DNA of 64,000 nt from a virus. The DNA lies in IMG/VR virus record IMGVR_UViG_3300031521_000021, positions 1-64,000 of that record; one strand, written 5' to 3'. Positions 3,001 through 9,000 of the stretch are shown one piece after another (the first letter of the stretch is position 1; each line of letters opens with the position of its first letter). Position numbers: made by a program.

Positions 3001-6000
3001 TATCTCTTTTTTGTTTTTCAACAATTCTTACATATACTATATTATCATTTTTAGTCATATCTTGTTTAATATTACTTAATTCACTTATCAACAAGTCTGT
3101 TTGAATATAAAACTGATATTCTTCAGTACTCATTTCTTGATTTTTAAATTTTTCATCCATATCTGTCGATTGTTGTAATAATCTTAAAGTTCCATCTTCA
3201 AAACTAGCTTTCATATAAGTATACATTTTATTGTTACTGATATTAGTAGCTGTAACTCCTCTTAGCATAGGAACTGCATTTTTTATTTTTTTACCATCTT
3301 CATCATTATCTAATACAAGTGGTGGGTATTCAGTAATTATACTTGTAGTTGGATTTTTATATTCCCATGCACTATAAAATAATGATGGTAGTGGTTCTCC
3401 GTTACCCCTCATATCTATTACAATTTTAATCGCATTAGGAAATTTTAAATGATATAATTCTCTTAAAAATTCCATCTGTTTTGGCAAAGACAAACCATTA
3501 TGAGTTTTAGTATAGATAACTTCTTTATAATATGTACCATTAACTCTTTCTTTTATTTTAATAACATGTGTACAAGCATTATCTGAATTATTAGCTTTAG
3601 ATATAGCTACATCATGTACAATAATATATTCACTTTTACATTTTATTGGTTGGTGTGGTTCACAATTTTCTAATGTTCTACATGGATTAGTTAAATCATA
3701 TGGATAATAACTATCACCACTAGAGCCAACAAATTGACCACAATATTCATATAAGAATTTATCTAGTGTCATAGTAGGTTTTTCTTTTTCTTTTAATATA
3801 TCATCTTCTTCGAATATTCCAGCTTGTACACCTACTTGATAAGGCAAACAACTTACAAAATAATCTTTTGAACCTTCCATCATTTTTTCATAATGAAACA
3901 TAAATCTACGATATAGTGGACTTATTTTTAAATGAGCAGAAGACAAAAATATCATTTTACCTTTTTCTGGTTGGTTATGATAGATTGCAGACTGTCTTTT
4001 TGTCTTAGTCATCGGAATTAGTATTTCTTCTATAATATCGTCCTTAATAAGACGTGCTTCATCGCCCAAAATTATATTAAATCTCCAACTTCTAGCTGAA
4101 TCTCCACCTTTATCTTGTGCTAATGTAATAGCTCTAATTTCTGAACCATTTTTTAAATTAACAACACAATCATCTGCACCAGTTTTTATTGGAAATTGAA
4201 TTTCTCTAGCTATACTTTCGTTTTTGGCTAGTTCTCCTTTTATTTTTTGTATTATAACATTCCTAGCTTGTTGTCCCATTCCTGATGCTATTCCAAGCTT
4301 AATTCCAGGATATAGAATTCCCATGCAAATGAAGAAAACAGCTGTTAAATATGATTTTCCCAGCCCCCTACATGCTATAAACATTGAATTTTGATACCTT
4401 GCCATACCTCGTAAAATTATTCTCTGAAAAGGATATAATCTCAAACCTAGCATATTTATTGCAAACTCATCAATATAATATCTATAGTAAGAAATAAACT
4501 TACTCCACTCTTCATAGTCTATATTTTCTTCTTTTATTGGATCATAACTTAAACTGTTTTCAAAATTTTTATCATTACCTTCTCTTTCATTCATCTTTTT
4601 AACACTGAAATTTTTTACTTTTGCCATACTTAATACTCTCCCTTCTATAATGATTTGTTTATAGTTGAGAATGCATCAAGCATCTTATCATAATCATCTT
4701 TATTTATTGGGTCATGTTTTGGAATCCATTTTCGTTTCTCAACTTTATCAAAAGTTACTCCAAAACAACCTAGCCCAACTTCATTTGCTCCTCTTTTATC
4801 TTCTGCAAATTGTGCTGATTTTGATAATTGGTCAAAAGTATCCTTTAAGTTTTTATATCTAGTATCAGAACCTTGCATACCATTTATCATGTCATCGTAA
4901 GCTCTATCCATTGCCAATGAAGCTTTTGCTATTTTTCTAGCATAATCTTTATGATTTCTAGTAACAATTTTGAAATCAGTTGTTAAATCTTTATAATAAG
5001 TCTCTAAATAATTAAAATCTGATGCGGTATAACTTCCACGCCAATCTTCACTATAAATAACTTCTTCTTTTATTTTATCTTTTTTAATATTATTGGTTTT
5101 CTCTGCATCATTAGAAATTTTTACAGATGAATCAAAAATGCTATCTTTCCATCTCAACCCTTTAAACTGATTTAATGAATTAGCTTGTGTGATATAAGCC
5201 CCAAAAGTATCTCTACTACCATTTACACATCTATCCCAATATTCATATAAAAATGGGATATCAAGTGCCTGTAAAACGGAATATACACTATTAATGTCAT
5301 CAACATTTATCATTTTGTTTATACATTTTTTACATATATTTACTCTATGATTATTGTTAAACAAAGGAGAATTAGATTTATAAAAATTAGTTTCAATTAA
5401 TTCTCTTTTGCATTCTCCTTGGCATTTTATCTTCTTCTTTTCTGTATTTGGTGGCATTGTCTATTTCTCCTTTCTTTAATTTATTGTTTAAAACTTAAAT
5501 CAACTACATTAATGTTTGCACCAAAATATCTAAATGGATTTATAAAATTATATAATATTCCTTCAATATCACCATTATCTTTGATTGTACTTTTTACTGA
5601 TTGTGATATTATAATATTGCTAAATCTATATCCCCTAGCACTATTACTAATGTTATAGAATACATGTAAATAATAATTATCATACTTTATAAATCTACCA
5701 ATAAATTCCTTTCTATCACTGACAATTTTATCGTTTCTATATGGGTGATTATCTAATAAAATTTTTAATTCTTTTTCATCAGATACAAATACTCCTATTA
5801 CTGGTTTAAAACTCATTTATTTCACTTCCTTCAATTTGAATCTTTTATATTAATTTATTATCTTTTTTTATTTCTTGTAGTAAATGAATTTGTTGTAATA
5901 TATTTTCTCTAGTTAATGTAGTATTTCTATTCTTTGGTATTTCTGAATATTCAATCATTAATTCTTCTATTTGATTATCATAAAAATTACCAGTATCAAA

Positions 6001-9000
6001 TTTTATATTATTTACATCTGTTTCTTTATCACTGAATATTTCATCATATTCTCCAAATAAATCAAACTCTTGTCTAAAATTTAATTTGCTAATATCTTTT
6101 TTTATTTCATCTAACGAATCTTTAGTCATTAAATTGTTCCGTATAAGTTCTTTTAAACTAATGTTATAAATTTTAATTGCTCTGCATGGATACATATTCA
6201 TTAACCAAGAATATGACATTGAAATCATAGCAATATGTTTTTTTGATTTGATATCAAATTGTGGTAAACAGTTACTATATAAAACCATGTCAACATATGT
6301 ATTAAATAATTTATCTTCTTGTTTCAAAGAATTATAATTATATATTTCTGAAATATCACCATTAGTGAATATTATTTTTATTTTATTTCTATCATCACTT
6401 AAATAACTAATTGTATCTTTTATTTCTGAGGATGTATTATATATTTCTTTGAATTTTTCTATCAAAGCTCTAAATTGATTACTAGTCCAATTCATATACA
6501 AACAAACTTTTGGTCTTTCATATAAAACTTTGCAAGCTAATATATAATATTTTCCTCCACCTCGACTCATATTTCCTATAATAGTAGGTGATGTAACATT
6601 TTCTACTATTTCCTTTTGATAATCTAACATTCTTGGCATTATTCTCTCTTCTCTCACTTTAATGCACTCTCCTTTTATATAATCTTTATTTACTCACCAC
6701 AAAGATAAGCATAATTAAAATTACATAATAAAAAACTGAGTATATTTCAACTCAGTCATGTTCTTATAATATTTCTTCTGTAGTACCTTCGTACTTATTA
6801 TTTTTACTTCTCAAATCTTCTAATTTTGATTTTACTGCATCTTTAATAACAACTCTAAATACCTCACCTAAAGATTGTCCGTAAATTTCAACACTAGGCA
6901 ATGTAGGTGATAACAAATTTGTAGCAATAGTTGTTACATCAATTTCAAATTTAAGAGACAATGTTTTATCTACTACAAATGGTAAATTTATTGGAGTAAA
7001 TCCTACTTGAACACCTGTATATGTAGTTGTATTAGAAGTTACTACACTATTTGCTCCAAGTACTGTATTGATTGCAGAAACTAAAGCAGTAGGGTCTGTT
7101 ATAATTGATTTACTAGCTACAACTTTTCCACTTGATATACTAATATCACTAGCAGAATATAATGCTAATACAGTAGTATCAGTTTTAACTGCATTTAATA
7201 TAGCAGTTTCTATTTCATTTTGAGTAGCAATACCATTTGTTATATCTGCTATTGAAACTGAAATAGTTTTTGTACCAATAATTACATTTTTACTTCCACT
7301 ATTAACTGGACTTGCAACTACAGATGTAGGTAATGTAATAGATAAAGTGTTTGTATAATTTGTTACACCTTTATCCTCAACTGGTTCATTGTCAACTACT
7401 TTAATATATCTTTTAAAATTTAAATCCTTATATTCAATCATAGGATTCCAATTTAAAATTAAATTTTCTTCATCAGTTGCACTAAGTAATGCCGTACCAT
7501 ATTCTTTAAAGGATACTACTACAATCACTTTATTATTTTTTATATCTTTACTATAATCTAATTTCATTTTATAAATACCTCCTTAAAATTTGTTTATTTA
7601 AATTGTGCAATCATTCCACTTTCACATTTATGCATTTTTATAAAATCTTCTTTACTTATTTGACTTTTATTCTCAGGTTCATCAAATAAAGTATTCATAT
7701 AAACCATATCAACACAATCATTTTCTTTATTGAGTATAAATTTAATTGCTTCTGTATCTGTTAACTGAATTAATGTTTCTTTAGGAGTTTTATTCATAAA
7801 ATCACTATATATTGTTTGCACTTCTCCTTTTTTTAAATTAAAATCCATTCCTTTCACCACCAATCTTTTTAAATTTAATACTGGGCATAACAACAACCCA
7901 GTCATCCGATTAAGTCCTTAATTAACCACACCATATTGCAGATGTAGTCTATAAAAACTCAAAGTTTTCTTATTAATTTTCATTTAAATCTACTCTTTTA
8001 TTTGGATATTATTCTATTAATTTATTATTCTTCAAGCCTTAATGCTCTAATTGCATAAATTGATTCTTGAAGTTCATCTTCTGAAACTTCTATTCCTTCA
8101 TTATATCCAATTTCAAAAGCTTCGTTCAATTTATCTGCAATCATTTCAACTATAGACTCAACATCATTTGGATCAATTTCACTTAAAGATGATAGTAATT
8201 CATCAGTTAATGTATATCCTAAATCTTCAAAGTCCTCATCCTCAGATAATTCACAATTAGTACAATCTCCATTGCATTCTTGTTCTTCATCTATATACTT
8301 AATCTCAACTGGAATTATTTCAGTATCTAAAGCAGTATACTCAATGCAGTCAAGCAAATCCTCATCCACATATGTAATTACTAATTCATCATCTGGAATT
8401 GTGTAACCTTCCTCATCAAAAACTTCTTCAATAAAATACATTACTTTCTCACAATCTTCACATATTGTTTTTGTAATTTGTAAAATATCATTATTTTCTA
8501 TCATATCTTCAAATTCATCTTCATAGTCAAAATAAACAGTAACTCCATCTTCTATTAAATCATTTGCAATGTCTACTATAATTTCCTTTTCAGCTATAAA
8601 TCCTATGTTCACTTCTGAGTCTAGTATCATTTCTTTAATAAATTCCATTAATAAAACCTTCTTTCATCTTAATTTATTTTTAGTTAAGTACCATTGTATA
8701 AGTTTCAGTTATTCCTTGATTTCTTTCAATTTTAAATAATTCACATATTCCTTTAGCACCTAATTTAAGACTATCAGAATATGGATCACTTCCAATAAAT
8801 GAATTACAAACAATTATTTTAGTATTTCCATTTAATTCTCCTACCGACATAGATTGTCCTGAATGAAAATGTGCTACAAATGCTATGTCATACCATATTT
8901 TATGTAACATAGAGTAATCTTTTATAGTATTCTTAACACTTTTTACTTGATGCCCATGTAAAGATAGTATTTTTTGACCACAAAGTTCAAAAGAATTATA

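Follow-up and report, generated by a model that had tools for sequence, protein, structure and literature searches.

Why should a phage that already encodes a large terminase (TerL) keep, close by, a second protein with the fold of the TerL motor and an eroded catalytic site? The question is raised by a 64,000-nucleotide stretch of DNA (hereinafter the window), the first 64 kb of the 116.6-kb linear virus record IMGVR_UViG_3300031521_000021 (CheckV completeness estimate 47%; G+C content about 25%), whose phage is present in peat metagenomes. Two minus-strand open reading frames (ORFs) are at issue, ORF270 and ORF111, which a sequence-only reading had described as degenerate paralogs of the terminase beside them and as possible decoys, packaging regulators or poisons of competing phages. 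We find that ORF270 is a homolog of the TerL ATPase domain, predicted to have its fold, that belongs to a separate and conserved family and stands at the head of the gene string that includes TerL. The reading we prefer, which we hold with about even confidence, is that ORF270 is a maintained, nuclease-less homolog of the TerL motor whose role is to bind, assisting or regulating packaging without catalysis.

The relationship to TerL escapes pairwise comparison. BLASTP of ORF270 against the adjacent TerL is not significant (E 0.62), so the motif pairs on which the sequence-only reading relied could have been chance, but profile methods show otherwise. When a profile of 52 family sequences (hereinafter A2) is aligned by hhalign with the TerL sequence, 188 columns match at a probability of 84.6% (E 6.8e-6; ORF270 residues 9-198 on TerL residues 61-295), and against a profile of five YonF-type TerL sequences the match reaches 96.0% (E 4.7e-9) over 195 columns (ORF270 9-209 on TerL 63-300). 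Both alignments set opposite each other the very pairs picked out by eye, LDYQ/LYPFQ, SRGGGKYY/CRGLGKSY and NFRQEF/KFLYEY, and place S128-N129 of ORF270 on the Walker B Asp-Glu of TerL, in agreement with the earlier remark that YSN stands there instead of DE. The A2 profile also recovers the true TerL of its own genome (third among 193 ORFs, E 6.9e-4) and those of the virus genomes G002 (E 3.9e-5), Geobacillus virus E3 (E 1.3e-6), G004 (E 6.8e-3) and T4 (E 2.6e-7), and in a search of the PDB it matches T4 gp17 at the Q-motif and Walker A (E 8.7e-5). A profile built from 12 ORF270 sequences finds nothing in the PDB and aligns with TerL at only 1.7% probability in hhalign. Unlike TerL, ORF270 scores below the Pfam thresholds, with no match to Terminase_6N or TerL_ATPase at the gathering score, and it has no usable match among the PHROGs.

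Structure prediction leads to the same domain. The AF2 model of ORF270 computed from the 52-sequence alignment has a predicted local distance difference test score (pLDDT) of 89.9 and a predicted template modelling score (pTM) of 0.74; an earlier model from 12 close sequences (pLDDT 45.7) was not used. In a Foldseek search of the PDB, ranks 1-15 are all TerL ATPase domains, including those of P74-26 (E 5.7e-8), T4 gp17 and D6E, with Sf6, the PhiV-1 TerL of the Avs3 complex and HK97 at lower ranks, and the top matches in BFVD are large terminases (E 4e-10). The proposed terminase-like P-loop fold is thereby confirmed at the level of the model. Superimposition by VIA-align gives Z 15.6 for D6E TerL (root-mean-square deviation 2.9 over 182 residues), 14.2 for P74-26, 13.9 for HK97, 13.4 for Sf6, 12.7 for T4 and 11.9 for the PhiV-1 TerL chain of the Avs3 complex; NAT10/TmcA helicase domains and then superfamily 2 helicases follow after the TerLs.

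The likeness to the TerL ATPase domains of the YonF type and of D6E, P74-26, HK97, Sf6 and T4 extends over about 180-195 residues (Z 12.7-15.6), with a shared order of Q-motif, P-loop containing Arg and Lys, Walker B strand, Ser/Thr-rich strand and lid. Unlike TerL, ORF270 lacks a nuclease domain, as had been noticed from the sequence: the protein ends at 270 aa, and about residues 222-268 form two helices in the model, a C-terminal hairpin that TerL does not have. In addition, ORF270 has other residues in place of the Ser/Thr of Walker A and the Asp-Glu of Walker B, and it has no Arg at the arginine-finger position before the Walker B strand.

The state of the catalytic site was read from 101 family rows aligned to the profile, 85 of which span all motif columns (11 from the ORF270 clade and 74 others). 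ORF270 itself keeps the P-loop Lys in SRGGGKYY, with Tyr in place of the Walker A Ser/Thr, and has Ser-Asn in place of Asp-Glu in the Walker B strand VDMVLYSN. Throughout its clade Q14, R32, K36 and D123 are each present in 11/11 rows. By contrast, the Walker A Ser/Thr is found in 0/11 (Asp in 10, Tyr in the window copy) and the Walker B Asp in 0/11, the position being always Ser, followed by Asn, Asp or Ser. Among the other family rows K36 is kept in 67/74, the Walker A Ser/Thr in 65/74, the Walker B Asp in 54/74 and the full canonical set in 38/74. These counts indicate that the family tolerates erosion of the catalytic site and that the ORF270 clade is the most eroded part of it. ORF270 is thus most likely a non-hydrolysing pseudo-ATPase that looks like TerL. 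Residues that would hold the nucleotide (Gln for adenine binding, Arg and Lys of the P-loop) are kept, so that nucleotide binding is predicted, and those that would serve Mg2+ coordination and hydrolysis (Ser/Thr in Walker A, Asp and Glu in Walker B) are lost.

Is such a protein maintained, or is it on its way out? ORF270 has 12 close homologs at 55-86% identity, of which 11 are full-length (259-332 aa) and one is ended by a contig edge. All 11 full-length homologs keep their frames open, and the degenerate strand, together with its following loop, is among their 59 invariant columns (D123, M124, L126-S128 and C130-F134). These relatives exclude neutral decay. That ORF270 and ORF111 might both be decaying remnants of a duplicated terminase would suit their degenerate catalytic motifs and the missing nuclease domain, and yet frames and lengths are kept in 11 ORF270 and seven ORF111 homologs down to 55-56% identity, the degenerate motif is itself invariant, ribosome-binding sites precede both genes, and the indels listed inside the ORF111 of a relative sum to +9 bases and leave the frame intact. 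We consider decay highly improbable, and the intact frames, conserved lengths, invariant degenerate motif and ribosome-binding sites led us to reject a pseudogene reading.

An exhaustive profile search (E ≤1e-3) places ORF270 in a family of 79 representative clusters, the majority with a length of 240-270 aa. Neither Pfam nor PHROGs has a model dedicated to this family: among 52 members, Terminase_6N is touched by three and ResIII by eight (E ≤0.1), and phrog_2 by six (E ≤1e-3). In a collection of 50,697 phage records only GP59 of Geobacillus virus E3 belongs to it, and among 399 sampled genomes of the class of G004 the family was found in G004 alone. No related loci were found in viral contigs with the queries A1, P0008, P0040, P0034 and P0043, nor in metagenome contigs with A1 and P0008. 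By its sequence relationships ORF270 represents an old, separate family rather than a recent copy of the adjacent TerL. The family, previously unannotated in phages, comprises proteins of about 250 aa that combine a TerL-type ATPase domain with a short C-terminal helical hairpin. The hairpin, marked by a conserved T-x-L-T-R-x-N motif, also occurs as a stand-alone protein of 58-122 aa (P0062, P0063 and P0066); it looks like an independent module, and its stand-alone occurrence fits a docking module.

The nearest relative of ORF270 in the genome is a 463-aa TerL-like protein (63586-64977; 1480-2871 of locus L003), which lies 57 kb away in the early-gene region and is 34% identical to ORF270 over the ATPase domain (BLASTP E 9e-38). 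Of the earlier description of ORF270 as a paralog of the terminase beside it, the homology to TerL stands, but the wording is imprecise, as the 463-aa protein is closer and the family is old and separate. The 463-aa paralog differs from ORF270 in that it keeps SRGGSKT and VLFDD, carries a nuclease-like domain and is located among early genes. Its C-terminal half resembles the RNase H-like nuclease of terminases as a structural lead: ESM Atlas returns a Terminase_6C cluster with a feature score of 0.97 and template modelling (TM) scores of 0.61-0.71, and profile comparison with the TerL nuclease is not significant (E 0.06-0.27). Long-form relatives in three other large virus records have different C-terminal regions. 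In one of them, a related 141-kb virus record (locus L005), the nuclease-like part has an ORF to itself immediately upstream of the ATPase gene, 310 aa long and Cys-rich near its N terminus. The same 141-kb record (G001, the source of loci L005 and L006) has two long-form copies, of 447 and 539 aa, which are 84% identical and about 68 kb apart.

The position of ORF270 in the window gives the main clue to its use. The features concerned are the following.

1259-2857, minus strand: 532-aa ORF at the portal position (ORF call and position)
2888-4627, minus strand: TerL of the YonF type, 579 aa, with Walker A CRGLGKS and Walker B ILGDE
4645-5457, minus strand: YonG-like protein, 270 aa, with an N-terminal Cys-rich motif (phrog_3314, E 1.7e-64, function unknown)
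5481-5816, minus strand: ORF111, 111 aa, with a ribosome-binding site; a conserved small protein with an invariant ARGY-FSN-I-S motif
5845-6657, minus strand: ORF270, 270 aa, with a GTG start and a ribosome-binding site; TerL ATPase-domain homolog without the nuclease domain
6734-6757, minus strand: terminator-like hairpin with a T-run after it, in the gap that separates ORF267 and ORF270
6764-7567, minus strand: ORF267, 267 aa, rich in Ser, Thr and Val
8680-9888, minus strand: protein of 402 aa with a match to phrog_284 'exonuclease' (E 5.7e-48); it lies two genes upstream of ORF267
63586-64000, plus strand: start of the 463-aa TerL-like paralog, which continues past the window end to 64977 of the record

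At this left end of the record the order of transcription is ORF267, ORF270, ORF111, the YonG-like gene, TerL and the 532-aa ORF. For TerL the match to phrog_2 is clear (E 1.5e-26) and that to Pfam Terminase_6N marginal (E 1.4e-4). Clostridium phage c-st encodes a protein 65.4% identical to this TerL, CST168, which is annotated as a homolog of SPbeta YonF. In c-st, homologs of YonG and YonE flank CST168 in the same order as here, CST169, the 'YonG-homolog', being in the matching position. The TerL likeness to CST168 and the shared YonG/YonE order indicate a phage of the SPbeta/c-st type. By its position directly upstream of TerL, which it shares with SPbeta and c-st, the YonG-like protein is a candidate for the small terminase. 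ORF267 has no family match in Pfam or PHROGs.

Only 28, 23 and 17 bp separate ORF270 from ORF111, ORF111 from the YonG-like gene and the latter from TerL, and each gene has a ribosome-binding site. As the terminator-like hairpin (6757-6734) precedes ORF270, we take ORF270 to be the first gene of the ORF270-ORF111-yonG-like-TerL string; at the head of this packaging operon, it is therefore probably co-produced with TerL. No promoter of the sigma-70 type was found upstream; the late genes of SPbeta use a phage polymerase. On the reading we prefer, ORF270 would bind through its conserved former active-site face and its hairpin, with TerL, the YonG-like protein, the portal or DNA as candidate partners, and would thereby assist or regulate the packaging machinery without itself being a catalyst.

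Does ORF111, the next gene in the string, have the same origin? Its seven homologs (56-93% identity, 109-113 aa) share 45 invariant columns, among which are A60-R61-G62-Y63, F65-S66-N67, I69 and S71. Pairwise BLASTP against TerL gives E 0.060 with 15/31 identities, and hhalign of the ORF111 family against the TerL profile aligns 14 columns only (57-70 on TerL 175-188; E 0.0092, probability 4.4%). The score of this alignment, 24.6, was reached by 0/150 column shuffles (mean 14.1, sd 2.3, max 21.4), and the short segment match, as judged from sequence, is real and above chance; the remark that ORF111 reproduces just one TerL segment has held up. TerL 175-188 comprises a conserved Arg-Gly segment, whose Arg corresponds to the trans-acting arginine finger of P74-26 TerL, and the strand running into the Walker B Asp-Glu, where ORF111 has Ser-Gln. 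In the ESM Atlas model of ORF111 (pLDDT 0.64), the structural neighbors that carry a family name are all TerL (3/3), with TM scores by query of 0.62-0.66 over 96-97 of the 111 residues; of the named feature clusters, the closest three stand for TerL ATPase families, with scores (0.85-0.86) short of the trusted level.

We consider it probable, though by a modest degree of confidence, that ORF111 is a fragment of the TerL ATPase core without the P-loop; it would then be a fragment-sized derivative in which the motif strand has lost its acidic pair. An unrelated small protein, resembling TerL in one short motif by convergence or chance, is a serious possibility that we rate below even. It would accord with the low hhalign probability over 14 columns, with the absence of signal against the ORF270 family (E 0.25), Pfam, PHROGs and PDB sequences, and with the lack of ORF111 beside the ORF270 homolog in the related contig L017; it sits less easily with a match that falls on the most conserved TerL segment and outscores 150/150 shuffles, and with Atlas structure rows that, where they carry a family name, all name TerL, the feature clusters being at lead level only. 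A complex prediction for ORF270 with ORF111 gave scores of 0.02, 0.40 and 0.29 against a mark of 0.32, which carry no weight for or against binding.

Several observations weigh against the reading of ORF270 as a non-catalytic packaging accessory. The first group concerns the catalytic site, as both the loss of hydrolysis and the retention of nucleotide binding are read from motifs. Wherever Asp follows the P-loop Lys in the family (18 rows), the Walker B Asp is missing, and 10 of the 11 clade members are of this kind, which could mean that the site is rewired and still active; the window copy, with Tyr there, may also differ from its relatives. ORF270 would on this account be a working ATPase whose Mg2+ ligand has moved to the Asp after the P-loop Lys, hydrolysing ATP for packaging initiation, recombination or replication. 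The invariance of Q14, R32, K36 and D123 in the clade would agree with a rewired enzyme, as would the emergence of the Asp-after-Lys state in at least four supported lineages, the look of most family members as working ATPases and the retained C-motif-like Ser/Thr strand. The window protein itself, however, has Tyr after the Lys and Ser-Asn at Walker B, with no acidic residue at any of the three positions.

The order of the changes speaks to the same point. In a FastTree tree the ORF270 clade is nested after P0029 (GKT, YSD) and P0030 (GKN, YND), and the outgroups P0029 and P0035 have GKT with YSD. The states of P0029 and P0030 on the tree therefore indicate that the Walker B Asp disappeared first and that Walker A changed later, which counts against a rewired site. 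An independent-pairs test of Asp after Lys against Walker B Asp loss lent the idea no support, having only four supported pairs and no power. Taken together, we regard an active, rewired ATPase as unlikely, and the non-catalytic accessory remains our preferred account of ORF270.

The second group of objections to that account concerns selection and linkage. Among the 40 of 243 population variant sites listed, ORF270 and ORF111 each have two non-synonymous and no synonymous changes and the YonG-like gene 30 synonymous and two non-synonymous, a subset too small for an estimate of the ratio of non-synonymous to synonymous polymorphism (pN/pS). In L017, a contig of a metagenome-assembled genome with the order ORF270-like, ORF267-like, YonG-like and TerL, ORF270 is far more conserved than TerL (57.8% versus 25.5% identity); this gap, which also points to constraint on ORF270, may reflect mosaic exchange, and it speaks against a close co-evolution of ORF270 and TerL. 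That ORF270 is linked to the packaging operon is known from three contexts, from one of which, L017, ORF111 is absent. A wetland RNA-library contig of 2086 nt, about 90% identical, has ORF270, ORF111 and the YonG-like gene together, and shows the gene order in a relative rather than proving transcription. For ORF111, finally, the sequence signal amounts to 14 columns, and for its fold there is one Atlas lead, from a model with a pLDDT of 0.64.

The L017 contig also counts in favor of the preferred account, in that the ORF270 homolog there again precedes the YonG-like gene and TerL, and it bears on the company that ORF270 keeps. The ORF267 homolog in L017 (905-1711) is 55.6% identical and the YonG-like protein 34.0%, so that ORF267 and ORF270 may travel together, as suggested by this one contig, whose terminase and head genes differ strongly. 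Elsewhere, the long-form family genes lie in the early regions of the genomes G000-G003, and E3 GP59, with GKT and YDD, lies 40 kb from its TerL. In these few contexts the degenerate copies stand beside TerL and the canonical copies away from it.

The terminase sensors of bacteria bring in another explanation. In a Nat Commun 2026 report (PMC13601566), the ATPase domain alone of 5/5 tested terminases activated EcAvs2, the EcAvs2-terminase interface includes the terminase-bound ATP and its Mg2+ shell, and T4 vs.8, a stand-alone TerL ATPase-domain homolog, activates EcAvs2 and is toxic with it. The report treats the role of such non-terminase activators as an open question, with anti-defence as one possibility. 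A nuclease-less TerL ATPase paralog is thus already in print. Like ORF270, vs.8 is a phage TerL ATPase-like protein without a nuclease that exists beside a normal TerL; it differs in keeping Walker A and B (PMC13601566), both of which are degenerate in ORF270, and in lying far from gene 17, whereas ORF270 heads the TerL operon. The two are not demonstrably of one family: hhalign of the ORF270 family against vs.8 gives E 0.13 over 28 columns at the P-loop only, and in T4 the family profile finds gp17 and not vs.8.

Could ORF270, and perhaps ORF111, then be decoys that bind terminase sensors (Avs1-3, Upx-like) without activating them and so shield TerL? The TerL ATPase fold is what these sensors read, through an interface that uses ATP and the Mg2+ shell (PMC13601566), and ORF270 shares this fold, including that of the PhiV-1 TerL chain of the Avs3 complex (Z 11.9), has lost precisely the Mg-ligand residues and is encoded within the TerL operon; the anti-defence role raised for non-terminase activators in PMC13601566 would point the same way. 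The comparison with vs.8 cuts against it, as that look-alike activates Avs2 and is not shown to block it (PMC13601566). Because vs.8 and the TerL ATPase domain alone both activate EcAvs2 (PMC13601566), a look-alike would be expected to trigger the sensor, unless the loss of the Mg-ATP site uncouples binding from activation. Moreover, no sensor is known for the host of the phage, about half of the wider family (38/74 rows) is canonical and those members are away from TerL, and the literature searched yielded no description of a terminase decoy and no work on phage terminase pseudoenzymes or terminase-like ATPases. We judge a decoy function quite improbable. The sharper version, in which ORF270 and ORF111 are silent mimics that blunt Avs2, Avs3 or Upx-like sensors and the loss of Mg-ATP ligands is an adaptation to occupy the sensor pocket without completing the ATP-bridged oligomerisation trigger, is very doubtful; if true, it would set beside activators like T4 vs.8 a natural 'silent' mimic, the first of its kind.

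The locus is of interest in other respects as well. New here are an unannotated family with a hairpin module, a clade-wide and selectively kept loss of the residues predicted for Mg2+ and hydrolysis at the head of a terminase operon, and a single phage in which TerL is joined by another TerL-like ATPase, one half of which is nuclease-like, by a copy of the motor alone and possibly by a mini-fragment. Stand-alone copies of the motor half may have a role tied to bacterial sensing of terminase, and the natural series in one genome would offer handles both on action by binding and on whether the Mg-ATP site decides sensor activation. Should the proteins turn out to be plain accessory ATPases, the value would lie mainly in better annotation of a family without a Pfam or PHROG model.

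A further comparison is with E3 GP59, from the one cultured phage in which a family member was found, a hypothetical protein with the same ATPase-plus-hairpin build and 30% identity to ORF270 over its full length (E 1e-15). It differs from ORF270 in its intact GKT and YDD motifs and in its place about 40 kb from TerL, among DNA-metabolism and small early genes. The 1.5 kb upstream of GP59 (7527-9021 of locus L001) is unannotated in Geobacillus virus E3, and four small ORFs of 60-168 aa were called there. In the window, a DNA-metabolism block abuts the packaging operon, with the 402-aa phrog_284 'exonuclease' protein near ORF267.

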